A stretch of DNA of 50,677 nucleotides. Origin: Holophagales bacterium UBA5066 (lineage in GTDB: Bacteria; Acidobacteriota; Thermoanaerobaculia; UBA5066). The notes below the pieces were generated by a model that had not been told where the DNA came from, made no database searches, and saw only the letters and a program-made list of their open reading frames with translations. Position numbers and translations under genes: made by a program. Location: positions 1 to 50,677 of the forward strand of contig DIAY01000022.1 in assembly GCA_002414905.1 (NCBI GenBank), given 5' to 3'. The stretch's first letter is position 1; each line of letters opens with the position of its first letter. Shown here piece after piece: positions 1,566 to 42,736 of the stretch.

Positions 1566-4500
1566 CTACGGCGCCAGGAGCCCCACCCCTTCCCTTACCG
1601 CCTTCTCCCGGAAGCCGGCCACGTCTTTCGCGAAAAAGGCGTCGAGATCGGCAAGATAGCTCGTCAGGCGCGCTTCGGCCTGGGCAAGCCTCTCGAGTTG
1701 CGTCGGACTGGGAGGCGCCCACGATGAGGCCACGTTTCCGGCGGCCGCCTGGAGATCCTGTGCCACGCGGTTGCGTGCGGGGATTCCCGCATTCTCAGGG
1801 GGGCTCCAGAGGAGGTTCTCCTTATCCGTCAGCACCCTCTTCAGCGCGGCTGCCTCCTTCGCGAAGGGCGTTTCGTTCGCCTTCCGGCGCTCGGCCGGAT
1901 CGCGCAGAGTCTCGCTTCTCCGCCGCAGCCTCTCCTCCACGGCCGCCACGTCGTCGCGCGTCCGGCGGATCCGGATCGCCGCCTCCGCCGCCTTCTCCTG
2001 CAACCCGCCCGCCCGCTCGATCGTCGCCCACCGCCTCACCCAGTCTGCCGGGGAGTTCTTCGACCGCGGGTCGGGAAGGACGCTCACCTGCGCGCGTGCC
2101 GTCGCGTCCCGGAACGCCAGCGTCACCGTGTAGTCCCCCGGAGGGACCTCGGGGCCGGCGGCCTGCCACTCCGGGAGGGGACCCGCATTGGGTGCACGCG
2201 GGAACCGCCGCCAGGCGTCGCGCCCGAGGTCCCACGCGACGCGGGTGACGCCCTGTCGCGCCGGCGCGTCGAAGACCCTCACGAGCGTCCCGGCCGCATC
2301 CGTCACGCGAATCGAAACCCGCGGCCGCGACGGGTCCGCTCCTTCCTCTCCGTCGCCACCACGAACACCCCTGTCCCGCCCCGGCGAGAGCGGCTCCTCC
2401 TCGCCTGCCGGAGGCAGGCCCGGCGCATTCAGAGAGAAAGTCAGAAGCGACCCGTACGGCCTGGATGTGCCCGCAAATTCGGCCGCGCCCGCTCCCGTCA
2501 CGCCGTCCTGGGCTGCCCGCCAGTACTGGCGCGCCGGGACCGGGGTGAAGAGGTGGAGAGGCGCGCCGAGCGTCTCCTCCGTCATCTCGCGAAAAGGCGT
2601 CAGGTCGTCAAGTATCCAGATCGCGCGGCCGTGCGTGGCGATGACGAGATCACCCTCCGTCGGGTGGATGGCCAGGTCCATCACCGACGCCGTCGGGATC
2701 GTCTTCTTCAGGTGCCGCCAGCCCGTCCCGCCGTCGAGCGAGACGAAGAGCCCCGTTTCCGTTCCCAGGAAGAGGAGTTCCTTCTTCACCGGATCCTGGA
2801 CGACGGCGAGCGCGTACCCCTTCACGGCGGGCGTCACGAGACTCTTCCACGTCCTGCCGTAGTCGTCCGTCCGGTAGACGTATGGCGCGAAATCGCCCCA
2901 GCGGTGGTTGTCGAGGACAGCGAACGCCGTGGCCGCGTCGTACCGCGACGGTTCGATCGCCGCCACGTGAGCGTTCTTCGGCGCGCCGGGTGGCAGCGCG
3001 TTCTCGACGGAGAGCCAGGTCCGGCCGCCGTCGCGGGTCACGTGGATCCGGCCGTCGTCCGATCCGGCCCAGATCGTCCCTTTCACCGCCGGGCTCGGCG
3101 CGATGGTGACGAGCGTCGTGTAGTTCTCGGCGGCCGTGACGTCGAGCGTCAGGCCGCCGCTCGCGCCCTGCTTCTGCCACGCCGGATTGTTCGTCGTCAG
3201 ATCCGGGCTCACCGTCTCCCACGTCTCGCCCCGGTCCCTGGAGCGGTGAACGTACTGGCTCCCGAGCCAGACGGTCGCCGGCCCGAACGGGTCGACCGCG
3301 AGCGCCGCGTTCCAGTTGAACCGCAGCTTCGTCCCCGCGGGCGCCTGGGGCCTGGCGTCACGGACCTCGCCCGTCCGGACGTCCCAGCGCATCAGGTTCC
3401 CTCCCTGGGAGAGGGAATAGCCACGCTCCGGGTCCTCGGGGTCGGGAAGGGTCTCGAACCCGTCCCCGCTGCCGACCCGCTTCCAGTGGTGCGCCTTCAC
3501 CCCGCCCCGCTGCCAGACCGACGACGGTCCCCGCCAGGAGTTGTTGTCCTGCAGGCCCCCGTAGACGTTGTACGGGATCTCGCCGTCGACGGCCACGTGG
3601 TAGTACTGCGCCAATGGCAGGGTCCCGACGAAGCGGAACGTGTCGCCCCGGTCGCGGCTCTCGTAGAGCCCGCCGTCGTTCCCGAGGAGCATCCGCCGCG
3701 GTTCCTTCGGGTCGATCCAGAGGGCGTGGTGATCCACATGGACGTGCTGGCGCCCCGTCCCGCGGACGTTCCCGAACGTCCGGCCGCCGTCCGTAGAGAC
3801 GCGCAGCTCGGTCGCGAGCGAGTAGACGCGGTTCGGCTGCTGGGGATCGACCCGGATATCTGCGTAATAGAAAGGACGCGGGTTGACCGAGGGGCCGTCG
3901 TTCACGACCTCGAAGCGGCGTCCGCCGTCTTCCGAGCGGAGGAGGACGTTTTTCTCCGCCTCGACGATGGCGTACACGACCTCCGGGTGTCGATCGCAGA
4001 AGGCGAGACCGATCCTGCCGAGCGTCCCCTTCGGAACCCCGTCCTTCTCGCCGAGCCTCGTCCAGCTCTCGCCTCCGTCCCACGTCACGTGGAGGCCCGA
4101 CCCGGGTCCTCCCGAGCGGAAGAAGTGCGGAGTCCGGCGGAAGTCCCACATCGCGGCCAGGAGGTGGTCGGGGTTGCCGGGATCGAGCGTCAGGTCGCCA
4201 CAGCCCGTCTTCTCGTCGACGTGGAGGACTTTCTTCCAGCTCTTCCCTCCGTCGTTCGTCCTGAAGACTCCTCGCTCCGCTCCGTCGCTCCAGGCGGGAC
4301 CGACCGCGCAGGCCCAGGCCGTCTGCGGGTCACGCGGGTGGAGGAGGATCCGGTGGATCCGCTCCGTCCTGGCGAGGCCGACGTTCGTCCACGTCTTCCC
4401 GCCATCGCGGGTCAGGTAGACGCCGTCGCCGTGAGAGATGCTGTTGCGCAAGTTCCCCTCGCCCGTGCCGACCCAGACGACATCGGGCGTCCTCGGATCG

Positions 4501-4784
4501 ACGGCCAGCGCGCCGATCGCGTGGACCGGCTGCTCGTCGAACACGGGCTCGAACGTGAGACCTCCGTTCGTCGACTTCCAGACGCCACCCGAGGCCGCGC
4601 CCACGAAGACGATCCGCGGGTCGCCCGCAAAGGCGTCGATGGCGGCGATCCGGCCGCTCATTCCCGCCGGCCCGATGCTCCGGGCCTTCAGGCCCTCGAA
4701 CCGGGAGGAATCGTCCGCCGTGATCGCGACGGACGTCGTGAGGAGGACTGCTGCGAGAGCCACGCGGACGAGACGACCGGCCAT
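1566..4784 (-). CDS. Secreted BNR/Asp-box repeat protein, sortilin/VPS10-like double beta-propeller
   Basis: 1072-aa ORF with signal-like N-terminus MAGRLVRVALAAVLLTTSVAITA. At least ten S/T-x-D-x-G-x-T/S-W/F Asp-box motifs are present (STNGGLTF, TRDGGKTW, TNDGGKSW, WDGGESW, SEDGGRRF, STDGGRTF, SRDRGDTF, SRDRGETW, TRDGGRTW, TDDYGRTW, SLDGGTGW). It ends 27 nt upstream of the next gene's start. Confidence 0.85.
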   Translation of the reverse strand: MAGRLVRVALAAVLLTTSVAITADDSSRFEGLKARSIGPAGMSGRIAAIDAFAGDPRIVFVGAASGGVWKSTNGGLTFEPVFDEQPVHAIGALAVDPRTPDVVWVGTGEGNLRNSISHGDGVYLTRDGGKTWTNVGLARTERIHRILLHPRDPQTAWACAVGPAWSDGAERGVFRTNDGGKSWKKVLHVDEKTGCGDLTLDPGNPDHLLAAMWDFRRTPHFFRSGGPGSGLHVTWDGGESWTRLGEKDGVPKGTLGRIGLAFCDRHPEVVYAIVEAEKNVLLRSEDGGRRFEVVNDGPSVNPRPFYYADIRVDPQQPNRVYSLATELRVSTDGGRTFGNVRGTGRQHVHVDHHALWIDPKEPRRMLLGNDGGLYESRDRGDTFRFVGTLPLAQYYHVAVDGEIPYNVYGGLQDNNSWRGPSSVWQRGGVKAHHWKRVGSGDGFETLPDPEDPERGYSLSQGGNLMRWDVRTGEVRDARPQAPAGTKLRFNWNAALAVDPFGPATVWLGSQYVHRSRDRGETWETVSPDLTTNNPAWQKQGASGGLTLDVTAAENYTTLVTIAPSPAVKGTIWAGSDDGRIHVTRDGGRTWLSVENALPPGAPKNAHVAAIEPSRYDAATAFAVLDNHRWGDFAPYVYRTDDYGRTWKSLVTPAVKGYALAVVQDPVKKELLFLGTETGLFVSLDGGTGWRHLKKTIPTASVMDLAIHPTEGDLVIATHGRAIWILDDLTPFREMTEETLGAPLHLFTPVPARQYWRAAQDGVTGAGAAEFAGTSRPYGSLLTFSLNAPGLPPAGEEEPLSPGRDRGVRGGDGEEGADPSRPRVSIRVTDAAGTLVRVFDAPARQGVTRVAWDLGRDAWRRFPRAPNAGPLPEWQAAGPEVPPGDYTVTLAFRDATARAQVSVLPDPRSKNSPADWVRRWATIERAGGLQEKAAEAAIRIRRTRDDVAAVEERLRRRSETLRDPAERRKANETPFAKEAAALKRVLTDKENLLWSPPENAGIPARNRVAQDLQAAAGNVASSWAPPSPTQLERLAQAEARLTSYLADLDAFFAKDVAGFREKAVREGVGLLAP

Positions 4785-5573: not shown

Positions 5574-6286
5574 GGATCTCGGTCGTCATCGCCGCCCTGG
5601 ACGAGCGGCGGAATGTTGAGCCCCTCACCCGCCGCCTCGCATCCGTCCTCAAAGGGCTGACCGGAGACCAGTGGGAGATCGTCTACGTCGTGGAGGGGAC
5701 AGACGGAACGAGAGACGTCCTCGACGCGCTCGCAGAAGAGATTTCCGGGCTTCGCGTCCTCTACCAGCCCGTGCCGCAGGGCCTCGGGGCCGCGTTCCGG
5801 CGGGGCTTCGCCGCGGCGGCACCCGACGCCGACGTCCTCGTGACCATGGACGCCGACCTGAACCACCAGCCCGAAGAGCTCCCGCGCCTCCTCGAGGCTT
5901 TCCGGCGGCGCGGATGCGACATCCTCGTCGGCTCGCGCTTCGCTCCCGGCGGCACGGTGGACCGGATGCCGGCCTGGAAGACCGCCCTCAGCCGAAGCCT
6001 GAATCCGCTCATGAAGCTGGCCTTCCGGATGAACATCCGGGACCTCACGTCCGGCTACCGCATCTACGACGGGCCGGCTCTGCGAACGCTTTCCTTCTCC
6101 GCGAACAACTTCGCGTTCCTTCCCGAGCTCCTCTTCGAGGCCGCCGCCCGAGGCCTGCTCATCGAGGAGGAGCCGATCCGGTTCATGTACCGGGTCCATG
6201 GCCGCTCCAAGATGGGACTCTGGAAGACGAGCCGCAGCTATCTCGGGCTCTTCCTGCGCCGCGTCATGGGCTCGTGGAGCCGGTGA
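5570..6286 (+). CDS. GT2 family glycosyltransferase, polyprenol-phosphate mannose/glucose synthase-like
   Basis: 238 aa. N-terminal ISVVIAALDE, a DAD motif (VTMDADLNHQPEELP), GSRF, and short Dpm1/Ppm1-like size. Translationally coupled on both sides (ATGA at 5570, GTGA at 6283). Confidence 0.85.
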   Translation: MRISVVIAALDERRNVEPLTRRLASVLKGLTGDQWEIVYVVEGTDGTRDVLDALAEEISGLRVLYQPVPQGLGAAFRRGFAAAAPDADVLVTMDADLNHQPEELPRLLEAFRRRGCDILVGSRFAPGGTVDRMPAWKTALSRSLNPLMKLAFRMNIRDLTSGYRIYDGPALRTLSFSANNFAFLPELLFEAAARGLLIEEEPIRFMYRVHGRSKMGLWKTSRSYLGLFLRRVMGSWSR

Positions 6287-8100
6287 ACCCTTTGCGCCGG
6301 CCGGGGGTGACTCTCGCCGCAGCGGGCCTGGGGGTGTTCGTCACTCTCCAGCTCCTCGTGTTGCTGATCCGCGGCGACCGGCACGTCCTCTTCTGGTGGG
6401 ACGGCGCGCCCCGGGTTCTCGTCGTCCTGTCGTGGATCTGGGTCTTCGTCCGGGCTGCGACAGGAGGCCTCGCAGCGGCCTGGCTCGCCAGGGCTATCGA
6501 ACCAGTGCTCCCCGAAAGGCGCGCTTCGGAGCGGGCCGGGCTCGCCGTCGCGGGCGTCGTGCTCCTCAGCGTGGTCGGGGCGGCGCTGCGCTTCGTTGCA
6601 CCCGTGTCGATTCCGCCCGGGGTGTGGCTCGACGTCGTCCTGGAGGCAGAGCTCCTCCTTCGGACCCCGCTCGCCGTCCCCTGGCTGGGGGGCACTCCCC
6701 TCGGTATTCCTGGTGCCCACGAGATCGTCTCGCATCTTCTCCTGCGTTCCTACGAGGGCCTTCTCCTCATCTTTGGACGGGGAGACGTCGGTCTTCTCTC
6801 CCTGTCCGCCCTACCCGCGACCCTGACGATTCCTGCCGCCGGCTGGCTCGCGTACGAGGCGTTCGGCAGTCGCGCGTCGGTCCTCGCCGCGGCGTTCGTG
6901 GCCCTTTCGAGCCGTTCGTTGGCGCTCGCGCGATGGGGGTACACGCCCGCGACCCTGGTGCCCCTCGCCCTCGCAACCATGGCGGCGGCGCTCGCAGCGC
7001 GCCGGAGGGGAAGCCTCGTGCTGGCGGCCCTGTCCGGTGTCTTCGCCGGCCTGGCGATGCACACCCACTCCTCCGCGCTCATCGTGCCGGTCGCCCTTGC
7101 CCTCTGGAGCGCTGGCACCTGGCGTGAACCTCGAGCCCGTCGCCGGTGTGCCGTCGCCGCGGGAGCGGCGTTCCTGGCCGCGGCCCCGTGGCTCGTCGCC
7201 TTCGTCCACCACCCGGGACATGTCGGAGGACGCCTCCGCGACGTCCACGTGGGAAATCCCGTGCGCGACGTCGAGGCCCGGCAAAGCGGGATCGTCGCCA
7301 GGCTCCTGGGCAACTCGATCGACTACTCGGGTCTCTTCGTCTTCACGAAGGACCCGAATGGCCGGCACGGATTCCCGGAGCGCCCGGGCGCGCCCGCGGC
7401 GATTGGCCTGGCGACGCTCATCGGCATGGCTGCGCTGCTGCGGCGATCCGTGTGGGACGCAGGACCTCCCCGGGCTCTTCTCCTGCTCGCGGCCGGAAGC
7501 CTCGCGGCCGGCATCCTGTCGGACCCCGGTGGGGCGCCGAACACCGTACGGGCCTGCATCCTGCTGGCGGTCGGTCTCGTGATCGCAGCCTGGGTGGTGG
7601 AGGCCCTCGCCCGCCGGATCGCCCCTGCCGTCCGCGCGCGACCCGGGGTGCTCCTGGTCCTCGTCGGAACCGGCCTCTTCATCCACGAGACGGTGCCGTT
7701 CCTCACCGTATGGCCGGGCCACGGAACGGTGAAAATGGCGTTCTGCCCGGAGGAATCCGACGCCGGCCGACTGCTCCGAAGTCTCGGGCCCGCCCCGGTC
7801 CTCCTCGAGAGAGGCTCGGTCGCCGCCCCTCTCCTCCTCGAGACCCTCGCGGCCTCGCCGGACGCGCGCGTCCCGGTACCGGTCATCCCGACGACGACCG
7901 CCGGGCAGCTTCTCACCGGAGCTCCGCCGGGCTCTTCGTTCTGGCTCGTCGCGACTCTTCGGTTCCCCGAGCCCCTCGCCGCCGCGGGGTGGACCGTCTC
8001 GAGGCCCGTACAGGCCGGACCGGGCCGTGCACTGTATTTCTTCCGGGTGCGCCCGCCCGCCGCCGGCGAACGGCACGCGGACGCACCGACGGACCGGTGA
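6283..8100 (+). CDS. Polytopic membrane protein, putative GT-C fold (PMT/ArnT-like) glycosyltransferase
   Basis: In frame with track ORF 5671..8100. The real start is taken as GTG 6283, overlapping the GT2 stop (GTGA). About 605 aa with many hydrophobic segments followed by a soluble C-terminal domain. Its position directly after a polyprenol-P-sugar synthase suggests a GT-C transferase. No strong signature motif was recognised. Confidence 0.55.
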   Translation: MNPLRRPGVTLAAAGLGVFVTLQLLVLLIRGDRHVLFWWDGAPRVLVVLSWIWVFVRAATGGLAAAWLARAIEPVLPERRASERAGLAVAGVVLLSVVGAALRFVAPVSIPPGVWLDVVLEAELLLRTPLAVPWLGGTPLGIPGAHEIVSHLLLRSYEGLLLIFGRGDVGLLSLSALPATLTIPAAGWLAYEAFGSRASVLAAAFVALSSRSLALARWGYTPATLVPLALATMAAALAARRRGSLVLAALSGVFAGLAMHTHSSALIVPVALALWSAGTWREPRARRRCAVAAGAAFLAAAPWLVAFVHHPGHVGGRLRDVHVGNPVRDVEARQSGIVARLLGNSIDYSGLFVFTKDPNGRHGFPERPGAPAAIGLATLIGMAALLRRSVWDAGPPRALLLLAAGSLAAGILSDPGGAPNTVRACILLAVGLVIAAWVVEALARRIAPAVRARPGVLLVLVGTGLFIHETVPFLTVWPGHGTVKMAFCPEESDAGRLLRSLGPAPVLLERGSVAAPLLLETLAASPDARVPVPVIPTTTAGQLLTGAPPGSSFWLVATLRFPEPLAAAGWTVSRPVQAGPGRALYFFRVRPPAAGERHADAPTDR

Positions 8101-11141: not shown

Positions 11142-14100
11142 TCACGGGATCCGGGCGCCGGCCCGGACGATCTCGAGGATCCGCGCGCCATAGCGCTCCA
11201 TGCGCGAGGGGCCGATACCGCCGATGGCGGCGAGCTCGGACTCGGAACGAGGCTTTCGCGCCGCGATGTCGAGGAGCGTCAGGTCGGTCAGGACCCGGAA
11301 AGCCGGCTGGCGGTGCTTCTTCGCCTCCTCGAGGCGCCAGCGGCGGAGCGCGTCGACGAGCGCAGGGAGCGCTCCCGGCGCCTCGGGCCCGGCCTTCGGC
11401 TTCCCCTTGGCCCGGCTTCCCCGGTGAGCGGCCGCCGCCGCTGGCTTCGGAAGGGCGGACCTCTTCGGGAGAGCGGCCTTCCCGCGCTTCTTTCTCGCGG
11501 CGGTGGTCGGCGGAACGGCCACGCGAGCATCGATCGCCGCTCCGGGCCGGCTCCCTTCGCCCGTGAGGAAGACGCGGCGGAAGCGGATGATCCGCCCGTC
11601 CTTCTCGAACTCGTCGTCCTCGATCCGTGCGAGGGTCGCGCGCACGAGGCCGCCGAGGAGCTCTTCGAACTCCCTGCGGTCCACGGCCGGAAACTGCCTC
11701 GCGACCTCCGTGTGAAGTTGCCCCGTCGTCTGGCCGTCCCGTGAGCGGAGGAGCTCGAGGGCACGCCGGAGCGCGGCCTCCTCCATCGGGCTCGTCCGGC
11801 GTGTCTTCGTGGCGATTCCTTTGCCGGGAGCGCAGACGTCGCACTGTCCGCAAGGGGCGCCGTCGTCCTCCTCGTCGCCGAAATGCCTCACCAGCTGAAG
11901 CATCCGGCAGATCGGTCCGTCGGCGAAGCGGCGCATCAGGACGAGCTGCGTCTTGCGATGCTCGCGCTGCTCTTCGTAGGCCCGCTGCCAGCCCTCCTTC
12001 CCGCGCGACACGTCGCCCTCGGGAGTGACGACGGCGCCGCCGAACGTCCAGAGCTTCTCGAGCGCCTTCTGGAAAACGTCCGGGTCGAGCGAGACTGCGG
12101 CCTGGAGGCCCTCCGTCGGGATCGGGTCATCCTTCAGGACGCGAAACAGCTCCTCGACGACGGACGTTTCGGGGTAGTCGCGCCCGAGGAAGAACTCGTG
12201 CGTTCGGATGTCGCCGTACGACTGCAGGAGAACGGCCCGCGCCGGGAGACCGTCCCGTCCCGCACGGCCGATTTCCTGGTAGTACCCCTCCACGCTCCCC
12301 GGCAGTCCCGTGTGGATCACCGTCCTCACGTTTGCCTTGTCGATCCCCATCCCGAACGCGATCGTCGCGACGATGACGTCCGCCCGCCCCTCGAGAAACC
12401 GGGCCTGCACGTCGTCGCGGTCCCTCGCGGTCATGCCCGCGTGGTAGGCCACCGCGCGCAGGTCGCGCTTCAGCTCCCCCGCCAGCGACGTCGCCTCCTT
12501 CCGCGTCGGCGTGTAGACGATGGCGGGACGCCGGGCCTCGTCGGCGAGGATCGCCTTCACCAGCTCGCCCCGCCGGCTGGGCGGCACCTCGGCCACCTCC
12601 ACCGCGAGGTTCGTGCGGCGGAATCCGTGGATGAAGCGTCCTGCGTTCACGAGCCCGAGCTGGGCGCGGACGTCGTCCTGCACCCGCGGCGTCGCCGTCG
12701 CCGTCAGGGCGATGACGGGCGCCGGGCGCAGGAGCGGGAGCCTCGACCCGAGGAGCCGGTAGTCCGGCCTGAAATCGTGCCCCCAGTGCGAGATGCAGTG
12801 GGCCTCGTCGACGGCGACGAGGGCCGGGGTTCTCTTCGCGAGCATCTCCGGGAAGCCCGGTACCGACAGCCGCTCGGGGGCGATGAAGAGGAAGTCGAGC
12901 CTGCCCGCGAGGTAGTCGAGGCAGACCTGACGTGACGCCGACCGGTCGCGCCCCGAGTGGATCCGCTCGGCCGAGAGTCCGAGCGCCTGCATCTTCGCCA
13001 CCTGGTCTTCCATGAGCGCGATGAGGGGCGAGACGACGAGCGTCGTCCCTGCACGGGCAAGACCCGGCAGCTGGTAGCAGAGCGACTTGCCTGCCCCCGT
13101 CGGCATGACGAGCAGGGCGTCGCGCCCCTCGACGACGGCCCGGCAGACCGCCTCCTGAAAGGGGCGAAACGCGTCGTGTCCGAAGACCCCCTTCAGCAGC
13201 TCACCGAGCCGGTCCGCGGGTACCGGCACCCGCGCCGCCCGCATCGGCCGCACCCCGCCGGCACCCGCCGAAGCGGAAAGAGGCCTGGCACCGGCTGCCG
13301 TGGCGGCTCCCGTGCCAGACGAGCGATCGCCACCTACGGCGCCTGTGGCGCCAGGCGTGCGACGACCTGCGTTGCCAGGCGTGCGATCGGCGGCCACGGT
13401 GTCCGCGGCTCCATTGCCAGCGGCTCCAGTGCCAGGCGTGCAATCGTGTATTACGTCCGTAATACACGATTGCACGCCTGGCACCAGGACGGGGGTGTCA
13501 ACTGCTCCATGAGCGCGTGTGGTGCTCCGGAAGGCTTCGCCCACGACCTCCCTCACGTATTCCTCGATCCCGTTCATGAAGGTCTCGAGGCGTCCGTCGC
13601 CCTTCTGCAGGCGGGCGAGCCCGGCTTCCCATCGCCCCGTCAGAGCCGGGCTCTTCACCGAGTCGGGGACGAGAGCGATGAGGCGGATTCCCTTGTCGGT
13701 CGCCGAGAAGGCCTTCCCGTTCCGCTCCGCGTAGCCGCGCGTCAGGAGCGTCTCGAGAATCTCCGCTCTCGTGGCAGGAGTCCCGAGACCGTTCTCCTTC
13801 ATCGCGTCGGCGAGCTCCTTCTCGTCGAGCGTCCGTCCCGCGGTCTCCATTGCGGTCAGAAGCGTCGCGTCGGTGAAGCGCTTCGGAGGACGCGTCTTCC
13901 TTTCGACGGCCGCCACGCCGGCCACCGTCTTCCGCTGCCCCCGGGCAAGCCCCGGCGGCAGCTCGGCCTCCTCGCGCTCGTCGTCCTTCTTCCGTGAGAC
14001 CGGCTCGGGCTCCACTGCCTTCCACCCGGCCGCGACGACCATCGTCCCGCTCGAGCGGAAGCGGTCGACGACGCCGGCGGAGCGGATCGGTCCGGGCGTG

Positions 14101-15431
14101 CGCTCCTCCGGCACTCCCTCGGGCGCTGCAGTGCCCGTTCCGCGCCGGACCGCCGTCACGACCGCCGTCGTCGCGGCCACGTGCTCGTCGTGCCAGGCCG
14201 CGAGGAGCCGCCGAACCACGAGTTCGTAGAGCGCCCGTTCCTCCCGGTCGAGATCCCGCGGTGCGGTGGGCGTCGGGATGATGGCGTGGTGATCGCTCAC
14301 CTTCGCGTCATCCACGAAGCGTCCGCCAAGCGGCGTCTCGCCGGTCCCCGTCGCGAAGAACTTTCCCCACTCCGGCCCGAGGGCTTGCACCACTCTCGGC
14401 AGCGTCGCAGCCACGTCACGCGAGAGGTGACGGCTGTCGGTCCGCGGATAGGTGATTGCCTTCCTGCCCTCGTAGAGGCGCTGCGCCACCTCGAGCGTTT
14501 TCTTCGCGCTCCATCCGAGGAGCCGGTTCGCGTGGCGCTGGAGCTCGGTCAGGTCGAACAGGAGCGGAGGCGGAAGCCGTCGCGTCTTCGACTCGACCGA
14601 CTCGACCGCCGCCTCGCCCGAGGTCACGCGCGCGACGATCGCGGCGGCGGCCGCGCCATCCACCGGAAGACGCTTCCCGCCGTCTTCCTTCTTCGCCGGG
14701 TCGAACCACGTCCCGCCGTATCGCCCCGTCTCTCCCGTAAACGTCGCGATGACCTCGAGGTACTCCTCGGGGACGAAGTCGCGGATCGCCAGCTCCCGCT
14801 CGACGAGCATCGCGAGCGTCGGCGTCTGGACGCGCCCCACCGAGAGCTTCTCGTCCGTGGCGAGCGTGAAGGCGCGGGAGAAGTTCATTCCGACGAGCCA
14901 GTCGGCCCGGCTCCTCCCGCGTGCCGCGTCGGCGAGCCGGTCGTAGTCCTTCGCCGGCCTGAGGCGCGCCAGGCCGTCGCGGATCGCCTCGGGCGTCAGC
15001 GACGAGATCCAGAGCCGCTTCACCGGCTTCGTGCAGCCGGCCGCCTCGTAGAGCTGCCGGAAGATCAGCTCACCCTCCCGCCCCGCGTCCGTCGCGCAGA
15101 CGACATCCGTCACCCGCGGGTCGGCGAGCACCTTCCGTACCGCCTCGAATTGCTCCTTCACGCGTTCCTGGACGACGAGGGGCCACACCTGCGGCAGGAT
15201 CGGCAGCTGGTCGCGCCGCCAGCTCTGCCACTCCGGGCGCATCTGCCCCGGCTCGGCCAGCGCGACGAGGTGCCCGATGGCCCAGGTCACGACGTGCCCC
15301 GGTCCGCTCAGGCAGCCCGTTCCCCTCCGGGTCGCTCCGAGCACCGCCGCGATGTCGCGCGCGACGGAAGGCTTCTCGGCGACGACAGCGACGAAGGCGG
15401 GCTCAGGCATGCGCGATGCAGTATCCGACAC
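11142..15431 (-). CDS. Fusion protein: DNA topoisomerase III (type IA) N-terminal module plus RecQ-family helicase with HRDC C-terminal module
   Basis: Single uninterrupted 1429-codon frame. Topo III motifs: AEKPSVARDIA, TWAIGHL, DAGREGE, GRVQTPTL, active-site ITYPRTDSRHL, HHAIIPT. RecQ motifs: FRPFQ, PTGAGKSLCYQLP, DEAHCISHWGHDFRPDY, ALTATAT, FGMGIDK, QEIGRAGRDG, and the Cys cluster CRM..CGQCDVC. The C-terminal segment is HRDC-like (FRVLTDLTLLDIAARKP...IGGIGPSRMERYG). An in-frame internal ATG at 13244 precedes the RecQ module. Confidence 0.85.
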   Translation of the reverse strand: MSDTASRMPEPAFVAVVAEKPSVARDIAAVLGATRRGTGCLSGPGHVVTWAIGHLVALAEPGQMRPEWQSWRRDQLPILPQVWPLVVQERVKEQFEAVRKVLADPRVTDVVCATDAGREGELIFRQLYEAAGCTKPVKRLWISSLTPEAIRDGLARLRPAKDYDRLADAARGRSRADWLVGMNFSRAFTLATDEKLSVGRVQTPTLAMLVERELAIRDFVPEEYLEVIATFTGETGRYGGTWFDPAKKEDGGKRLPVDGAAAAAIVARVTSGEAAVESVESKTRRLPPPLLFDLTELQRHANRLLGWSAKKTLEVAQRLYEGRKAITYPRTDSRHLSRDVAATLPRVVQALGPEWGKFFATGTGETPLGGRFVDDAKVSDHHAIIPTPTAPRDLDREERALYELVVRRLLAAWHDEHVAATTAVVTAVRRGTGTAAPEGVPEERTPGPIRSAGVVDRFRSSGTMVVAAGWKAVEPEPVSRKKDDEREEAELPPGLARGQRKTVAGVAAVERKTRPPKRFTDATLLTAMETAGRTLDEKELADAMKENGLGTPATRAEILETLLTRGYAERNGKAFSATDKGIRLIALVPDSVKSPALTGRWEAGLARLQKGDGRLETFMNGIEEYVREVVGEAFRSTTRAHGAVDTPVLVPGVQSCITDVIHDCTPGTGAAGNGAADTVAADRTPGNAGRRTPGATGAVGGDRSSGTGAATAAGARPLSASAGAGGVRPMRAARVPVPADRLGELLKGVFGHDAFRPFQEAVCRAVVEGRDALLVMPTGAGKSLCYQLPGLARAGTTLVVSPLIALMEDQVAKMQALGLSAERIHSGRDRSASRQVCLDYLAGRLDFLFIAPERLSVPGFPEMLAKRTPALVAVDEAHCISHWGHDFRPDYRLLGSRLPLLRPAPVIALTATATPRVQDDVRAQLGLVNAGRFIHGFRRTNLAVEVAEVPPSRRGELVKAILADEARRPAIVYTPTRKEATSLAGELKRDLRAVAYHAGMTARDRDDVQARFLEGRADVIVATIAFGMGIDKANVRTVIHTGLPGSVEGYYQEIGRAGRDGLPARAVLLQSYGDIRTHEFFLGRDYPETSVVEELFRVLKDDPIPTEGLQAAVSLDPDVFQKALEKLWTFGGAVVTPEGDVSRGKEGWQRAYEEQREHRKTQLVLMRRFADGPICRMLQLVRHFGDEEDDGAPCGQCDVCAPGKGIATKTRRTSPMEEAALRRALELLRSRDGQTTGQLHTEVARQFPAVDRREFEELLGGLVRATLARIEDDEFEKDGRIIRFRRVFLTGEGSRPGAAIDARVAVPPTTAARKKRGKAALPKRSALPKPAAAAAHRGSRAKGKPKAGPEAPGALPALVDALRRWRLEEAKKHRQPAFRVLTDLTLLDIAARKPRSESELAAIGGIGPSRMERYGARILEIVRAGARIP
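13312..13484. repeat. REP/MITE-like palindromic repeat inside the TopoIII-RecQ linker
   Basis: Perfect 26-bp inverted repeat GTGCCAGGCGTGCAATCGTGTATTAC (13429-13454) / GTAATACACGATTGCACGCCTGGCAC (13459-13484) with a 4-nt loop. It is preceded by four degenerate direct half-sites (GTGCCAGACGAGCG, GCGCCAGGCGTGCGA, TTGCCAGGCGTGCGA, TTGCCAGCGGCTCC). The same family occurs at 15467-15577. Confidence 0.85.
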
Positions 15432-15466: not shown

Positions 15467-15604
15467 GGAGCCGTGCCGGACGAGCCGTGCCAGGCGTGCA
15501 ACCGTGTATTGCGGAGGAGCCGTGCCAAGCGTGCAACCGTGTATTGTGTTCAACAATACACGGTTGCACGCCTGGCACGATCTTCAGATGGCACGATCTT
15601 CAGA
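15467..15604. repeat. Second copy of the same palindromic repeat family, plus a 16-bp tandem duplication
   Basis: Two direct units GCCGTGCCA(G/A)GCGTGCAACCGTGTATTG (15484-15511 and 15519-15546), then an inverted unit CAATACACGGTTGCACGCCTGGCAC (15553-15577). This forms an approximately 25-bp hairpin. It is followed by TGGCACGATCTTCAGA twice (15573-15588 and 15589-15604); the second copy contains the trpB2-like stop codon. Confidence 0.85.
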
Positions 15605-17718: not shown

Positions 17719-18465
17719 CCTTATCGCCACGCCCCCGACCGCGTACGCGAACCAGGCGAAGCTGTAGACCTCGTCGTTGTCGGCTCCGCCTTCGAGGGTG
17801 CGCGCGCCGACGAAGAGATCCACGCCTGGGGACACTTTCGCCTCGAGGCGGAGGGCGACGTCTTCCGCGCGCCCCTGACTCGCCGCAGCGGCGTCGACGT
17901 CGAGGTCGAGCGCGAGGGTATCGGTCATCTGCCAGCGGACGCCGCCATAGAGAAGCGGCACGACACCGACGTTCGCCTTGGTGTTCGAGAGGCCCGAGCC
18001 GTTCAGCTCGATCTTCGCGTCGCGGATCTTCGCGGTGAGCCCGGCGCGAAACGCGACGGGACCGGAGCTCTTGAACCGGTAGACCCAGGAAAGACGGTAG
18101 GAGTTGAAAACGTAGATCACGTCGAGGGGCTCGCCCGCGGGAAAGACGGTGCCGTTGAAGTCGACGTCCGTGTCGGGAGTGAGGGACGCCGTGGTCCTCA
18201 GGGGCGCGGCGAGAAGGCGGAGCGACGTGCGCCGGGAAACCTCGGCCCAGAGCGTTCCGCGAAAGGCGGCGAAAGGGCCCTGCGTGGCGTCGTCCAGGAA
18301 AAGGCGTGTGCCGGCGTCGCCCGGGACGGCGAAGTCGTTGCGGAGCTGCCAGGCGGCGCCCCCCTCGAGCTCGAGGCGAAACCGGTCTTCGGCCGCGGCG
18401 GGACGAGCAGCGACGGCGACGGCGAGAAGGAGTGCGGAGGCGACGGAAGCGAGGGCTCGGTTCAC
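17713..18465 (-). CDS. Outer-membrane beta-barrel protein (hypothetical)
   Basis: 250 aa with signal peptide MNRALASVASALLLAVAVAARPAAA. Alternating hydrophobic/polar beta-strand pattern throughout, and a C-terminal aromatic residue (...AVGGVAIRF) typical of BAM substrates. Confidence 0.7.
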   Translation of the reverse strand: MNRALASVASALLLAVAVAARPAAAEDRFRLELEGGAAWQLRNDFAVPGDAGTRLFLDDATQGPFAAFRGTLWAEVSRRTSLRLLAAPLRTTASLTPDTDVDFNGTVFPAGEPLDVIYVFNSYRLSWVYRFKSSGPVAFRAGLTAKIRDAKIELNGSGLSNTKANVGVVPLLYGGVRWQMTDTLALDLDVDAAAASQGRAEDVALRLEAKVSPGVDLFVGARTLEGGADNDEVYSFAWFAYAVGGVAIRF

Positions 18466-18537
18466 GCCATCCGTTCCGCCGAACGCCCGGTTTCGGATTC
18501 CAGCCCGGGGCCGGCGCCCTCTCCGTCGTCCAGGGCC

Positions 18538-19092
18538 TTACGGCAGCGGCACGTCCTTCAGCTCGAAGCGGTAGCGGCGGAGGTACCGCGGGTTGCTGGC
18601 GGCGGCCGCAGGGTCGCCCCCTGGCACGTAGAGCTCGATCTCGCCCGAGACCTCGCGGAGGGAGACCGCCTTGCGCGCGGCGAGCTTCAGCGGGACCGGG
18701 AGGACGACCGGGCCTTCGGAGCCTTCGCCCTTCAACGGCTCGAGTGCCGCCACGCCGGCGTTCTCGAGGACGAGGTTCGTGCCGAGGTCGTCGACAGCGG
18801 TACGGACGAGGACGCGCGCCGAATCGATCTCGCTCCTCTTCGCGCCGACGAGCTCGATGTCGATCTCGCAGAGCGGCGTGCCCACCGGACCGCGCCTCCG
18901 CTCCTCGCGGACCCGGACGAACTCCATCTTCAGCGGCGGCACGGGGACCGGCGTGGGCTCGGGCGTGGGGGCGACAGTGGGCGTCGGGCGGGGCGCTACG
19001 AGCGCGCGGGCTTTCTCCGGGAGGCCGCAGCCTCCCGAGGCCGTGAAAGCGGCGGCGAGCAGGAGGGCGAGGGAGGCCGGTTTTCGCCTCAC
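18538..19092 (-). CDS. Hypothetical lipoprotein, paralogue of the upstream gene
   Basis: Start set to GTG 19092, overlapping the upstream stop (GTGA). Lipobox LLAAAFTASGG-C, then a Pro/Thr-rich linker (PRPTPTVAPTPEPTPVPVPP). The C-terminus YRFELKDVPLP matches the upstream protein's VPFEMKGVPLP. The longer track ORF (to 19548) is Arg/Gly junk. Confidence 0.65.
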   Translation of the reverse strand: MRRKPASLALLLAAAFTASGGCGLPEKARALVAPRPTPTVAPTPEPTPVPVPPLKMEFVRVREERRRGPVGTPLCEIDIELVGAKRSEIDSARVLVRTAVDDLGTNLVLENAGVAALEPLKGEGSEGPVVLPVPLKLAARKAVSLREVSGEIELYVPGGDPAAAASNPRYLRRYRFELKDVPLP

Positions 19093-19571
19093 GGAAGCGG
19101 AACGCCTTTCATCTCGAACGGGACTGAGACGGTCGACTTCTTCGTCGGGGATTTGCGCGACGGGTCGCGCTTCGGGAGCCAGAGCTCGACGGTGCCCGCG
19201 ACCGTCACCGTCGCGGCGCTCCGGGCCGGGCTCGCGAGGTGGATCCAGAGGCCCTCGGCCGTCCCGTCCTCTGCCCAGGGGGGCAGCTCGGGCTCTTCGG
19301 GGAGGAGCGATCGCCCGGTGTCGTCCTCGGCCGCGGTCACACGGATCCGGAAGGCCTTCGCCTCCTCGAGCCCTTCGCCCTCGAGCTTCGGCATCAGCGT
19401 CAGACGGCCAGCCGCCTCGTTCGACGCCTCGCGGGAGCGGGATTCGGTGACCGAGTCGACGACGATGCGAAACGTCGCCTCTGCGGCGAGGGGCGCGGCG
19501 ACAGTGGCGAGGGCGAGGGCGAGCAGAACTCCCGCCGCGACCGGACATTTCCTGGCTCCTGGAGCGTTCAT
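19089..19571 (-). CDS. Hypothetical secreted protein, paralogue of the downstream lipoprotein
   Basis: Start set to ATG 19571 (MNAPGARKCPVAAGVLLALALATVAAPLAAEA). 160 aa. It shares three blocks with its neighbour: FRIRVTAAEDDTGRSLL vs RVLVRTAVDDLGTNLV, AGTVELWLPKRDP vs SGEIELYVPGGDP, and FEMKGVPLP vs FELKDVPLP. Confidence 0.65.
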   Translation of the reverse strand: MNAPGARKCPVAAGVLLALALATVAAPLAAEATFRIVVDSVTESRSREASNEAAGRLTLMPKLEGEGLEEAKAFRIRVTAAEDDTGRSLLPEEPELPPWAEDGTAEGLWIHLASPARSAATVTVAGTVELWLPKRDPSRKSPTKKSTVSVPFEMKGVPLP

Positions 19572-19658
19572 GGCCACCTCGTCGTGCGTTTTGCCGAAGT
19601 CTACGCCGGGGACGCTGCGGCGCTTCAGGCGAAGCGGTGCAAACTTCGACGCAGCCCG

Positions 19659-20450
19659 ATGCCCTTCGCCGACCGCGGAACCCACCGCCTCTCGTACGAG
19701 ACGCTCGGGCGCGAGGACGCGCCGCCGCTGCTGCTCGTCATGGGGATGAGCTTCTCGGCCCGGGCTTGGGGGCCCATGCCCGAGCGGCTGGCACGGGAGT
19801 TTCGCGTCGTCGTTTTCGACAATCGCGGCGCCGGAGAGTCGACCGCGCCGCTTTCCCTTTTCGGGATGGACGACCTGGCCGACGACGCCGCGGCGGTGCT
19901 CGAGGCGGCCGGGGTCGGACCCGCGTTCGTCTTCGGAATCTCGATGGGCGGGATGATCGCGCTCGAGCTCGCGCTCCGGCACCCGGAGCGGGTGAGGGCG
20001 CTCGCGCTCGGCGCGACGTTCGCGGGATGGCGAAGCAGCCGGAAGCCGTCAGTGGCGGTCCTGGCCGAGCTCGTCGCCGGGGGCGCTCTCTCGCGGCTCG
20101 GGCTGCACCGGCTCATCGGGAGGGCGCTCGTCTCGCCACACCTAGGGGGAGACGACCTCGAGCGGTTCGGCTCGTGGATCGAGAGCGCGGATCGCGTGAG
20201 CCCGCGTGTCCTCTCGCAGCAGGTCGCCGCCGTGACGACCTGGGACGCCTTCGCGAGGCTCGGCGAGATCCGCGTGCCGACGCTCGTCCTGACGGGCGAC
20301 GCGGACCGGCTCGTCCCTGTGGAGAACTCGCGGGAGATGGCGGCGGCGATCCACGGCGCGCGCCTCGTCCTCCTCCCCGGCGCGGGACACTGCTTTCCCC
20401 TCGAGAGCTTCGAAGAGACGGCGCGCGAGCTGACGGCGTTCTTTCGGTAG
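19659..20450 (+). CDS. Alpha/beta-fold hydrolase
   Basis: Start ATG 19659 (MPFADRGTHRLSYETLG). Motifs: PPLLLVMGMS oxyanion region, DNRGAGES, nucleophile elbow GISMGG, and C-terminal GAGHCFPLE. Confidence 0.85.
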   Translation: MPFADRGTHRLSYETLGREDAPPLLLVMGMSFSARAWGPMPERLAREFRVVVFDNRGAGESTAPLSLFGMDDLADDAAAVLEAAGVGPAFVFGISMGGMIALELALRHPERVRALALGATFAGWRSSRKPSVAVLAELVAGGALSRLGLHRLIGRALVSPHLGGDDLERFGSWIESADRVSPRVLSQQVAAVTTWDAFARLGEIRVPTLVLTGDADRLVPVENSREMAAAIHGARLVLLPGAGHCFPLESFEETARELTAFFR

Positions 20451-29191: not shown

Positions 29192-30988
29192 TCAGCCCGG
29201 CAGCTCCCAGATGGTGATCGAGCCGCCGACGAACGCGATCCGGCGCCCTCGCGCCTTCAGCGTCCGGACCAGCTCTTCCACCTGCCGGGCTGCCGCCTCG
29301 CCTTCGATCCCCTTCGTGAACGGGTAGCCGAGGGTCTCCATCACGTGCGACACGGCGTATCGCCCCGGGCCAAACGGCTTGTCCGGGTCGAGCAGCCGGC
29401 ACGAACGCGAGTAATAGTTCGTCGCCACGCCACCGTACGCCACGATGGTCGTCGTCCCTTCCCAGCCGCGAGTCTCGAGGAATCGGTGCAGGCGGAGAAG
29501 GTCCTGACCCCAGTCGACGTTCGAGTCGGAGAACCAGTGCCGCCCTCCGTCCGGTCCCCCCGCGAGGAAGTTGAAGTAGGCGATCGGCGAGGTCCGCGAT
29601 CGAGCGAGCGAGAGGCCCGACGACGCCACGAGGAGGAGGACGAGCACGCCGAAGAGGCGCGGGCGGGCCGAGAACGCGCGGCCGGCAACCACGGCGGCGG
29701 CAAACACGAGCAACGCCCAGACCGGGAGGAGGTGGCGCGCTCCGATGTTGAATGCCGAGCGAACCGACAGGAGGAAGTAGGCGGCGGAGACGAGAAGGGG
29801 AACGAGGACGGCGAGCAGCGTGCGGCCCGCCGGCCCCTCGCCCCCTCGCCGCGGCCACAGCCGCCGGACGCCGGCGACCAGCGCGAAAGCCAGAAGCGCG
29901 AGGAACGCAGGTGTCGACTTGAGGAGGAAGGCGGCCGGGAAGTAGAGCGGGAAGGCGCGTTCGGAGAGCTCCCCACGGAACCAGTTCGCCCCGCGCCCCC
30001 GTTCGCTGAGGAGGGCGACGCCCTTCAGGCCGGCGAGGTACTGACCGACGGGCGGAGAGAGACGCACGAGCCGGACGTAGTCCTCCATCTCGTCCGGTCG
30101 CGCCTGGCGGCCGCCCAGGTACGCCCGGACGGACGCCTCAATGGATTCCTGTGGCATCCGGCGGAGCGTGAACGCGTAAACGCCGTACACGACGGTCGCG
30201 GCGACCGCGAGCGCCGCCAGCGCACCGACGAGCCGGTCGCGCGTGACGCCCCTCGCGGGCCGGTGGGTCTCTGAGCGGGCTCCGGGCAAGAGGAGCGGAA
30301 GGAACGGCGCCACGAGAACGAGCGGCACGAGAAGGACCGTCGAGAACTTCGTGACGAGTGCCAGCCCGAGCGCAAGACCGAGCAGGAGCCAGCGGTCGAG
30401 GGAGACGCCTCCGGCCGCGCGAAGCGCCAGGAGCGTCACGGCGAGGAAGGCGAGTGCCGCACCGACGTCGGTGTGAACGTAGGCCGCATGGGCGACGAAG
30501 CCCGGGTCCAGGGTCACGAGGCCTGCGGCCAGAAGGCCGGCCGCGGGGCCGGCAACCTTTCTCACGCCGAGGAAGAGCACGACGGCGAGCGCCGCGAGGA
30601 TCCACGGGAAAGGCCGGCGGCCGGCCGACACGATCACGTCCGCGGGAGCGGCGTTCCCGTACAGCCACTTCAGGTACCCGTTAAAAGGGGTCGACGTGCA
30701 CGGAAGGATCCGGCACGGGGTGAGCAGCCCGAGCGGCCGGAGTGCGAGGGCGCCCGCGAGCTTCAGAAGGGGCGGGTGCTCGGGGTTCAGCCAACCCGAG
30801 CCGTCCTCCAGCGCTTCCACGCCCGAAAAGAGGTGGATCCCCTCGTCGAAGGTTGGAGAGTCGTCCCTCTGGTGCCACCGGACGGCAGCCATCGAGACCG
30901 CCAGAAGGCCAACGAGGAGCAGACCCTCGACCGCCAGTTTCGCGGCGCTGCCACGACCCCGGCCGGACGGGGTCAGGGAGGCGTCCAC
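29192..30988 (-). CDS. GT39/ArnT-like polyprenol-phosphate-dependent glycosyltransferase
   Basis: Start set to GTG 30988, which overlaps the upstream gene by 16 nt; the track ORF extends to 31786 in a shadow frame. The first loop, FDEGIHLFSGVEAL...NPEHPPLLKLAGALAL, is typical of PMT/ArnT-type GT-C enzymes. Many TM segments are followed by a soluble C-terminal domain. Confidence 0.75.
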   Translation of the reverse strand: MDASLTPSGRGRGSAAKLAVEGLLLVGLLAVSMAAVRWHQRDDSPTFDEGIHLFSGVEALEDGSGWLNPEHPPLLKLAGALALRPLGLLTPCRILPCTSTPFNGYLKWLYGNAAPADVIVSAGRRPFPWILAALAVVLFLGVRKVAGPAAGLLAAGLVTLDPGFVAHAAYVHTDVGAALAFLAVTLLALRAAGGVSLDRWLLLGLALGLALVTKFSTVLLVPLVLVAPFLPLLLPGARSETHRPARGVTRDRLVGALAALAVAATVVYGVYAFTLRRMPQESIEASVRAYLGGRQARPDEMEDYVRLVRLSPPVGQYLAGLKGVALLSERGRGANWFRGELSERAFPLYFPAAFLLKSTPAFLALLAFALVAGVRRLWPRRGGEGPAGRTLLAVLVPLLVSAAYFLLSVRSAFNIGARHLLPVWALLVFAAAVVAGRAFSARPRLFGVLVLLLVASSGLSLARSRTSPIAYFNFLAGGPDGGRHWFSDSNVDWGQDLLRLHRFLETRGWEGTTTIVAYGGVATNYYSRSCRLLDPDKPFGPGRYAVSHVMETLGYPFTKGIEGEAAARQVEELVRTLKARGRRIAFVGGSITIWELPG

Positions 30989-32085
30989 TCGCCGAGGAGG
31001 CCGAGCTGGGCGAGGGCCAGCTTCCAGTAGGCCGGCATGACGCCATTGAGCGGAATGGCACCCCAGCAGTAGACGAACCCCATCACCACGGGGATGGCGA
31101 AGAGCCACTTGGCCTCGCGCGTCTCCCAGATGTCGTGGAAGCCGACGACGAGCGCGAAGGGGGCCATGACGAGCCAGTAGCGCGGCCACTCCTCGGTGGA
31201 GATGTTGATGTGGAGGAGGAACTGGAGCACCGAGTAGACGAAGACCGTCTCGAACTTCCGGATGCGCGAGATCCCGATGCCGTAGACGAAGGCGAGGAGG
31301 ATGAAGTACTCGACCTGGTGGTAAAGGCCCAGCTCGAAGAGGTGGGGCATGAAGCCGAACGGGCGGAAGGAGCCCGCCTTGTCTCCATGTCCCGCCAGGT
31401 ACTGGAAGAAGTTCCCGGTCTGGCTCCAGCAGAAAAGGAAGTAGCCGGAGAGGGCGGCCGGCGGCAGGAGGAGCCAGGGGAGGGACCGCCACTGGCGGCG
31501 CTGGAGAAGGATCAGGCCGAAGGCGACCGCGACGAGGATGCCCGGAATCCTCGTGATCGTCGCGAGCGTCGCCAGGAGAGACGCCCAACCGACCTTGTTC
31601 CTCTCGAACAGCAGGATCGCCGCGAGCGTGAAGAGAAGGTACGGGGCCTCCGTCGAGCCCGTGCTCCGGAAGTAGAGCCAGCGCGGCGGGAAGAAGAGGA
31701 AGACGGACGCCAGGAAGAGGGGTTGCGGCAGGAGCCAGGTGTCCCTGCAGAGCCGGAAAAAGAGGATCGCCGCGCCGGCGCTGCACAGCATCGAAACGAG
31801 GAGCATCGAGTGCTGATAGCCGACGAAGGAGAAGAGGCGGATCAGCGCCGGGTACCCGGGGAGATGTACGAGGTAGTAGGACTTGACGTAGACGTAGCCG
31901 AGGAGCGCGTAGCCGTCCGGGATGTCGTAGCCGGTCTTCGCTATCGTCAGGTAGTTCGGGCCGTCCCAGGCCCGGTAGACGGTCCCCATCCCGTTCCAGA
32001 ACGGCAGATAGACGAGGAGCGAGCCCCCCACGGTCAGAAGGACGAGGAGGATCTCGGCGCGGTAGCGCTGGAGGAGAGCCTTCAT
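30973..32085 (-). CDS. Polytopic membrane mannosyltransferase-like protein (PIG-V/GT-C-like)
   Basis: 370 aa with about 9-10 TM segments. The early loop YRAWDGPNYLTIAKTGYD resembles the WD..-YL.IA..GY motif of PIG-V-type mannosyltransferase family proteins. Confidence 0.6.
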   Translation of the reverse strand: MKALLQRYRAEILLVLLTVGGSLLVYLPFWNGMGTVYRAWDGPNYLTIAKTGYDIPDGYALLGYVYVKSYYLVHLPGYPALIRLFSFVGYQHSMLLVSMLCSAGAAILFFRLCRDTWLLPQPLFLASVFLFFPPRWLYFRSTGSTEAPYLLFTLAAILLFERNKVGWASLLATLATITRIPGILVAVAFGLILLQRRQWRSLPWLLLPPAALSGYFLFCWSQTGNFFQYLAGHGDKAGSFRPFGFMPHLFELGLYHQVEYFILLAFVYGIGISRIRKFETVFVYSVLQFLLHINISTEEWPRYWLVMAPFALVVGFHDIWETREAKWLFAIPVVMGFVYCWGAIPLNGVMPAYWKLALAQLGLLGEWTPP

Positions 32086-34089: not shown

Positions 34090-34101
34090 CGCGAGCCGTC
34101 A

Positions 34102-34130
34102 AAAGTACGCAGGAGGGGGAGTGCCGTCAA
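34102..34130 (-). promoter_or_regulatory. Candidate promoter TTGACG-17 nt-TACTTT upstream of the GyrB/ParE gene
   Basis: On the minus strand, TTGACG (34130..34125), a 17-nt spacer, then TACTTT (34107..34102). TTGACGGC is repeated at 34102..34095. The implied transcript would be nearly leaderless (ATG at 34089). Sequence pattern only. Confidence 0.25.
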
Positions 34131-42714: not shown

Positions 42715-42736
42715 GTATTCGAAAGAGCGGTGAAAT

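Follow-up and report, generated by a model that had tools for sequence, protein, structure and literature searches.

The DNA analyzed here is a window of 50,677 nucleotides, positions 1–50,677 of contig DIAY01000022.1 from Holophagales bacterium UBA5066, with a GC content of ∼70%. Its minus strand carries a gene whose predicted product joins a topoisomerase III (Topo III) to a RecQ helicase in a single polypeptide (Table 1). A preliminary description of this DNA, made from the letters alone, had reported an uninterrupted frame of 1429 residues at 11142–15431, and translation of the region bore this out. The coordinates given for the frame were right; the strand had to be corrected to minus, and the true start of the gene is probably an ATG at 15410 (Met8), which would give a protein of 1422 amino acids. 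We favor this ATG because a database gene call (P0001, 1422 amino acids) and the N termini of the homologues agree on it.

Table 1. Features of the Topo III-RecQ gene and of its flanking repeats
Feature	Position	Strand	Residues and details
Topo III-RecQ open reading frame	11142–15431	minus	1429 codons from GTG at 15431, no internal stop
Stop codon of the frame	11142–11144	minus	
Toprim (PF01751)	15000–15389	minus	residues 15–144; Pfam; Glu19 and acidic cluster TDAGREGE (114–121)
Topoisom_bac core (PF01131)	13575–14945	minus	residues 163–619; Pfam E = 8.5e-107; predicted catalytic Tyr328 at nt 14448–14450
Intermodule linker	13212–13541	minus	residues 631–740; P/G/A/S/R-rich, unalignable, predicted disordered
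RecQ helicase core	12249–13166	minus	DEAD (PF00270) residues 756–918; Helicase_C (PF00271) residues 958–1061
RecQ core residues		minus	Walker A Lys782; DEAH 875–878; motif VI Arg1056/1059
RecQ_Zn_bind (PF16124)	11832–11984	minus	residues 1150–1200; Pfam; four Cys; ∼60 extra amino acids ahead
RQC winged helix	11565–11789	minus	residues ∼1215–1289; from the structural model, missed by Pfam
Second linker, disordered and basic	11382–11507	minus	residues ∼1309–1350; between winged helix and HRDC; pLDDT below 50
HRDC (PF00570)	11166–11363	minus	residues 1357–1422; Pfam 72 bits; five-helix bundle in model
Perfect palindrome in linker coding sequence	13429–13484	.	27-nt arms, 2-nt loop; translated in frame as VPGVQSCITDVIHDCTPGT
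Degenerate partial repeat copies (TGCCAGGCGTGCGATCG-like)	13310–13389	.	tile the rest of the linker; families D2, D3, D10; I8, I12
5' intergenic REP-like cluster	15477–15604	.	two direct and one inverted copy, giving hairpins with 26–27-nt arms; palindromic element at 15477–15579
Tandem duplication of 16-mer TGGCACGATCTTCAGA, two exact copies	15573–15604	.	abuts upstream palindrome cluster

Each motif quoted previously was found in the translation. Those of Topo III are AEKPS (residues 18–22), TDAGREGE (114–121), GRVQTPTL (199–206), ITYPRTDSR (326–334, with Tyr328), and DHHAIIPT (380–387); those of RecQ are PTGAGKS (777–783), VDEAHC (874–879), and the cysteines at 1175, 1194, 1197, and 1200. 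A domain search of the product, proposed in the preliminary description, matched Toprim, Topoisom_bac, DEAD, Helicase_C, RecQ_Zn_bind, and HRDC in Pfam. Together with the NCBIfam matches given below, these data support the claim that a complete Topo III is followed by a complete RecQ in one chain.

The same architecture is widespread. In a search of 5.8 billion clustered proteins, at least 120 representatives of 90%-identity clusters had the identical six Pfam domains; they are 1304–1503 amino acids long and 54–86% identical to the query, with coverage mostly of ∼99%. Where the databases give them a name, it is "DNA topoisomerase 3" or "RecQ family helicase," and they come from Thermoanaerobaculia, Holophagales, or Acidobacteriota metagenome-assembled genomes (MAGs). 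Several of them sit on contigs of 2–9 Mb. A HMMER search of 1.84 billion 50%-identity representatives found both modules in 65 of the best 150 matches, always in the order Topo III then RecQ. Of these 65, about 35 span the full length, the lowest identity being 38%, about 10 distant ones have no HRDC domain, and one belongs to a Zetaproteobacteria MAG. When one genome per species was scanned, the fusion gene turned up in Holophagales, Thermoanaerobaculia, Bryobacterales/Solibacteraceae/Paludibaculum, and Myxococcota MAGs. Metagenomes such as activated sludge are the source of the carrier MAGs, which are not assigned to thermophile lineages. In total, the databases contain at least 185 different sequences with the fusion, which come from Acidobacteriota, Myxococcota, and the Zetaproteobacteria MAG. 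Whether related genomes have the fusion or two separate genes had been set beforehand as a test that could refute the finding; the relatives do not uniformly carry two genes, and the fusion is conserved across lineages.

We checked the open frame at 14 loci and found it uninterrupted in 11. The three broken frames are at L026 and L035, whose "tig" contig names suggest long-read assemblies, and at L024, from a Microflora Danica MAG; in all three, the breaks may be indel errors. Some clusters also contain half-length members, which might be taken for natural split genes. Two of these were examined, and both proved artefactual: at L158 (3304–7545), one open frame runs through both modules and the gene call took the RecQ part alone, and at L159, the half length is due to the contig end.

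Splitting or truncation of the gene is common in public calls of the fusion (L158 and the clusters of P0079, P0105, P0084, and P0015). Therefore, domain-architecture censuses based on gene calls undercount it.

To assess constraint on the two modules, we used an alignment of 130 homologues, from which all invariance and linker statistics below are taken. Tyr328 lies within (I/L)(S/T)YPRTDSR in all 130, and Toprim Glu19 is present in 128, the remaining two being gapped at that position. TDAGREGE, GRVQTPTL, DHHA, the Walker A Lys782, DEAH, the motif VI arginines, and the four zinc cysteines are invariant. Pairwise identities of the Topo III and RecQ modules correlate with r = 0.89 over 8,385 pairs and have near-equal means (0.73 and 0.71), which fits inheritance of the two modules as one unit. 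No further Topo III or RecQ paralogue was found within the 50,677-nt window. Our data show a fusion that is real, ancient, and inherited as a unit, with purifying selection on both predicted active sites.

The N-terminal module exceeded the curated NCBIfam models for Topo III (PRK07726, 650 versus a cut-off of 597; TIGR01056 topB, 564 versus 516) and did not reach those for Topo I (topA_bact, 198 versus 456) or reverse gyrase (rgy TIGR01054, 96 versus 472). Its best solved relatives are the E. coli Topo III structures 1D6M and 1I7D (E ∼4e-85). By its match to PRK07726 and its TDAGREGE motif, the module is classified as a Bacillus-type Topo III. The "DAG" in place of DxD raised the possibility of an inactive Toprim domain, which was ruled out because the identical motif occurs in L033, a standalone Topo III from Firmicutes; glycine at the second "DxD" position is, judging by this motif, normal for the subfamily. 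The C-terminal end of L033 consists of zinc-ribbon repeats, and RecQ in the fusion therefore sits where the C-terminal zinc-ribbon/DNA-binding domain normally is. The conserved motifs lead us to expect catalytic activity of the Topo III module in decatenation or relaxation.

The RecQ half exceeded the RecQ family model of NCBIfam (TIGR00614, 387 versus 220). Its best solved sequence relatives are bacterial RecQ cores (4Q47, 1OYW, and 4TMU), with E ∼1e-87 for the D. radiodurans and E. coli RecQ proteins; a sequence search of solved structures found no PDB chain covering both halves. An AlphaFold2 (AF2) model of residues 735–1429, with a predicted local distance difference test (pLDDT) of 81 and a predicted template modeling score (pTM) of 0.73, shows two RecA lobes, an enlarged zinc subdomain, a winged helix of three helices and a β-hairpin, a disordered basic linker, and a five-helix HRDC domain. 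Foldseek aligned this model over ∼600 columns to the entire RecQ catalytic cores 4TMU and 1OYW and over ∼725 columns to BLM, including its HRDC domain.

The zinc subdomain is enlarged by ∼60 residues. From motif VI to the first zinc cysteine there are ∼120 residues here (window 11832–12240, residues ∼1065–1200) compared with ∼67 in the standalone paralogue L022, and the extra segment in the model resembles a small helical/β-hairpin unit. An adaptation specific to the fusion was ruled out, as most RecQ-type representatives without a topoisomerase motif share the spacing, although miscalled pieces of fused genes may be among them. The enlargement is best assigned, on this spacing, to the RecQ subfamily and not to the fusion.

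The two modules are separated by a linker whose length in the homologues is 21–166 amino acids (median 79). In an AF2 model of residues 8–1207, both modules are well folded, the linker has pLDDT 26–41, and the overall pTM is 0.51, compared with 0.73 for the model of the RecQ half; no confident fixed arrangement results. The variable, disordered linker, this pTM, and the in-frame insertion of a REP-like palindrome that the linker tolerates (see below) favor two tethered enzymes over a docked machine of the reverse gyrase kind. Across the aligned sequences, the linker is shown to be free to vary in length and sequence, provided that the reading frame is kept.

The linker coding sequence of the window contains a perfect palindrome that belongs to a dispersed repeat. 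As RNA, it folds with an energy of −58.6 kcal/mol (z = −9.4). Its 24-mer has three copies in the 190-nt upstream intergenic region (15487–15578), between the upstream pyridoxal phosphate (PLP) enzyme gene and the fusion gene, and none elsewhere in the window, with a chance expectation of zero; the consensus half-site is GTGCCAGGCGTG(A/C)AA(C/T)CGTGTATT. A perfect or near-perfect palindrome occurs in the same place and frame at 11 related loci (L001, L002, L003, L005, L006, L008, L009, L013, L018, L020, and L134), so that with the window, ∼12 genomes carry it at the orthologous site. Over 11 palindrome copies, 97.7% of cells are paired, and 9 of 28 pairs have compensatory double changes, almost all from Watson-Crick to Watson-Crick; none of 500 shuffles reached the observed score.

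The repeat is not confined to the linker. Besides the window's own 5' intergenic region, the flanks of six related loci have extra copies, and a metagenome scan found at least 120 stretches with the repeat, with several copies per contig. Among 56 complete palindromes in 724 kb, most are not spanned by long open reading frames (ORFs) and a few are, these calls being noisy at 70% GC. Variants specific to a genome are common to its linker and intergenic copies; the GGGGTCAGG variant, for example, is present in both copies of L020. The palindrome is absent from the linkers of the close relatives L015, L017, and L004 and of more distant clades, and the L008 copy is decaying. It is therefore dispensable, and any regulatory role that the hairpin may have cannot be general. 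We read the linker palindrome as a putative passenger, like a repetitive extragenic palindrome (REP) or REPIN, tolerated in a disordered tether. An open frame despite such insertions adds to the evidence for selection on read-through into RecQ.

Other assignments for the repeat did not hold. A σ54 promoter was ruled out by eye, the TGGCAC/TTGC elements being in the wrong order, and a scan for intrinsic terminators and promoters gave no such site at the hairpins. The Rfam scan of the window found no family at either hairpin. A different repeat is found in two Thermoanaerobaculia-type homologues, P0034 (L156, 8001–12431) and P0119 (L157, 8001–12425), which have long linkers of 163 and 148 amino acids. 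These hold a shorter palindrome with 12-bp arms, CCCTCTCCCCCG/CGGGGGAGAGGG-like, that encodes SPGxGE-type motifs; L157 also has a seed copy immediately downstream of the gene. Such cases hint, weakly, that repeat insertions of this and other families may feed linker length variation in general.

In-frame insertion has a precedent in the Rickettsia palindromic elements, dispersed palindromic repeats that are inserted in frame in coding genes and translated (PMC10969869); other MITE or REP insertions within genes are comparable. Like them, the linker palindrome sits in frame, is translated, and occupies a site tolerated by the fold. It is shorter (∼56–60 nt compared with ∼150 bp) and, unlike them, is a perfect hairpin, shared by ∼12 genomes at a single orthologous site, where compensatory changes maintain the complementarity of its arms; its host lineage is Acidobacteriota. 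The in-frame REP-like palindrome would offer a clean example from outside Rickettsia of selfish palindromic DNA within a disordered protein linker.

The fusion can be compared with three known systems. RecQ-family helicases work in partnership with Topo III in organisms ranging from bacteria to humans, and a stable bacterial complex of the two has been hard to pin down. The E. coli RecQ and Topo III proteins, which act with single-stranded DNA-binding protein (SSB), belong to the same two enzyme families, and the fusion has all the catalytic motifs and the zinc, winged-helix, and HRDC domains. By analogy, the chemistry should be alike, with the helicase making single-stranded DNA and the type IA enzyme passing strands. 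The E. coli enzymes are separate proteins, whereas here they form one polypeptide. Unlike in the E. coli system, the Topo III of the fusion is of the Bacillus type and lacks a C-terminal zinc ribbon or basic tail, and its RecQ, with the ∼60 extra zinc-subdomain residues, does not reach the cut-off of the E. coli-type equivalog.

In the eukaryotic dissolvasome (Sgs1/BLM-Top3/TOP3A-Rmi1/RMI1-2), a RecQ helicase is physically coupled to Topo III, as in the fusion. There, the coupling runs through the helicase N terminus and Rmi1; here it is covalent, and the topoisomerase precedes the helicase in the chain. Pfam showed neither an OB-fold nor an Rmi1-like module in the fusion polypeptide, and none was seen among the scanned neighbors. 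Reverse gyrase resembles the fusion in that a single chain combines a helicase-like module of superfamily 2 with a type IA topoisomerase. However, its helicase is N-terminal, is not a RecQ (it has neither RQC nor HRDC), and is integrated rigidly by means of a latch, whereas the linker of the fusion is long, disordered, and hypervariable. The preliminary description had stated that the fusion has the opposite domain order to reverse gyrase and a true RecQ helicase, in agreement with the order Topo III then RecQ in all 65 two-module representatives and with the TIGR00614 score above its cut-off.

The same description knew of no characterized Topo III-RecQ protein. Our full-text literature searches likewise found no published description of a natural fusion, an earlier mention in subscription journals remaining possible; none was found in the main phylogenomic review, in a single-molecule review of type IA enzymes, or in a 2020 study of reverse gyrase (PMC7245102). 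In a passage of PMC7245102, hyperthermophiles are stated to have "uniquely" fused helicase and topoisomerase units, as reverse gyrase, and RecQ-Topo III coupling is still called elusive in a passage of PMC8191776.

Our preferred reading, which we hold to be probable, is that a Bacillus-type Topo III is flexibly tethered by its C terminus to a complete RecQ, which would feed it single-stranded DNA so that the protein could decatenate or dissolve intermediates. The model is drawn from the biochemistry of E. coli RecQ/Topo III/SSB and of Sgs1/BLM-Top3; the partnership of the two enzymes is treated in parts of PMC2647321, PMC8191776, and PMC7245102. At double Holliday junctions, converging forks, or gapped precatenanes, RecQ would use ATP to unwind the duplex or drive branch migration, supplying the single-stranded DNA needed by the tethered type IA gate for strand passage, and the fusion protein could in this way decatenate or dissolve late replication and recombination intermediates. 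The tether would provide 1:1 stoichiometry and a high local concentration in place of a protein-protein interface, without rigid allosteric coupling of the reverse gyrase kind. As a description of function, "single-chain dissolvasome" would fit such a protein.

Several points weigh against this reading. The mechanism is argued entirely by analogy, and the modeling case against docking is made from just the pTM and the linker pLDDT. With the shortest linkers (21–30 amino acids), the geometry may be more restricted than the term "loose tether" suggests, and two proteins could arise if the disordered linker were cleaved by proteases. The RecQ half missed the cut-offs of the E. coli-type equivalogs (TIGR01389, 474 versus 640; PRK11057, 371 versus 1015); by these scores, it is classified as a member of the RecQ family and not as a curated equivalog of E. 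coli RecQ. In addition, an Acidobacteriota MAG (L022, 9971–11581) has a standalone RecQ of 536 amino acids without HRDC and with no topoisomerase upstream, 71% identical to the fused RecQ module in the best segment. An adjacent unfused topB-recQ pair was ruled out at this locus, where the upstream ORF of 1100 amino acids has no Pfam domain; L022 may be either a paralogue or the result of a fission.

Among the alternatives, the one that survives best is an integrated, ATP-driven topology machine, a mesophilic and domain-swapped counterpart of reverse gyrase in which allosteric coupling would give rise to a novel net activity, for instance obligate ATP-gated strand passage or directional supercoiling. 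Reverse gyrase, as presented in part of PMC7245102, is a precedent for a fusion of a helicase with a type IA enzyme that has an emergent activity. The fusion studied here is also ancient, its module order is strict, and some linkers are as short as 21–30 residues. We nevertheless consider such a machine unlikely. The linker is hypervariable and disordered, with a pTM of 0.51, the domain order is opposite to that of reverse gyrase, and the reverse gyrase model scores only 96 against a cut-off of 472. Furthermore, RecQ keeps every accessory domain of an autonomous helicase, and no insertion specific to the fusion was found, the extra zinc-subdomain segment also occurring in proteins without a topoisomerase motif. 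Equally doubtful, in our view, is an extended version in which a coupled strand-passage machine driven by ATP and built from a true RecQ would have an emergent activity, for example processive ATP-gated decatenation/dissolution or directional supercoiling, and the conserved in-frame 27-bp linker hairpin would in addition tune the level of full-length protein in the Holophagales-type clade.

It is also rather improbable, a little more so than the coupled machine, that one gene yields two proteins that are used as separate enzymes, whether through an internal start at Met730, proteolysis of the linker, or processing or ribosome stalling at the 27-bp hairpin of the mRNA. The preliminary description had pointed to an ATG at 13244 (Met730) with GGGGTG upstream as a possible origin of separate RecQ. 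This ATG is indeed present, the disordered linker would be open to proteases, and the −58.6 kcal/mol hairpin is found in the linker mRNA of the window's clade. However, Met730 is unique to the window sequence (1/130), so that separate RecQ initiation is not a family feature and this part of the claim is not supported; any methionine within the last 30 linker residues is found in just 16 of 130 homologues. Nor would the hairpin be a general mechanism, being absent from L015, L017, L004, and distant clades. The open frame has been persistently selected through highly variable linkers, which argues that read-through matters.

A component of a mobile element or of anti-phage defense, instead of housekeeping genome maintenance, is very unlikely. 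There is a weak NCBIfam match to DpdF, and at L156 from Thermoanaerobaculia (3139–3965 and 17754–20431), AbiEii-, GmrSD-, and HEPN-type genes lie within ∼8 kb of the fusion. The DpdF score is far under its cut-off (207 versus 550 bits), and such defense-like genes were found neither in the window nor in its close relatives. Instead, the neighbors of the fusion gene in the window encode Tex, a cyclophilin (PPIase), the PLP enzyme, and a glycosyltransferase. This housekeeping synteny is kept across Holophagales-type MAGs, and the divergences of the two modules track each other across lineages.

That adjacent topB and recQ genes were joined artificially, in assembly or sequencing, through loss of a stop codon or an indel within the repeat-bearing, GC-rich linker is scarcely conceivable: the perfect 56-nt palindrome and degenerate repeats might mislead assemblers, frames are broken at L024, L026, and L035, and half-length members exist within some clusters, but both searches, which draw on independent projects and lineages, show the architecture unbroken (at least 120 clusters at 90% identity, 65 representatives at 50%), linker lengths vary by whole codons without stops, and the half-length members checked trace to a gene-calling error (L158) and a contig end (L159). 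We reject the artefact because the fusion is conserved as an open frame in many independent assemblies. These comparisons confirm the predicted Topo III-RecQ single polypeptide as genuine.

A natural Topo III-RecQ polypeptide as widespread as this one contradicts the "uniquely" in the passage of PMC7245102 quoted above. In the sense of a "Rosetta stone," the fusion is evidence for a direct, stoichiometric partnership of RecQ and Topo III in bacteria, and it would offer an Rmi1-free, single-chain dissolvasome for cryo-electron microscopy and single-molecule work. At least 185 database entries under single-function names would then be bifunctional. The fusion is not mechanistically shocking, but it should make RecQ-Topo III coupling directly testable in a single polypeptide.

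Two observations concern other parts of the window. ARAGORN called a tRNA-Ala(cgc) on the plus strand at 3332–3416, within a long BNR/sortilin-repeat ORF on the minus strand (1566–4784). Because Rfam at the gathering threshold reports only two tRNAs in the window, tRNA-Arg and tRNA-His at 42637–42812, the tRNA-Ala call is probably a false positive. The AT-skew profile in 2-kb steps has a flat background with strong local excursions at 6001–8000 (−0.28), 30001–32000 (+0.28), and 34001–36000 (−0.27).

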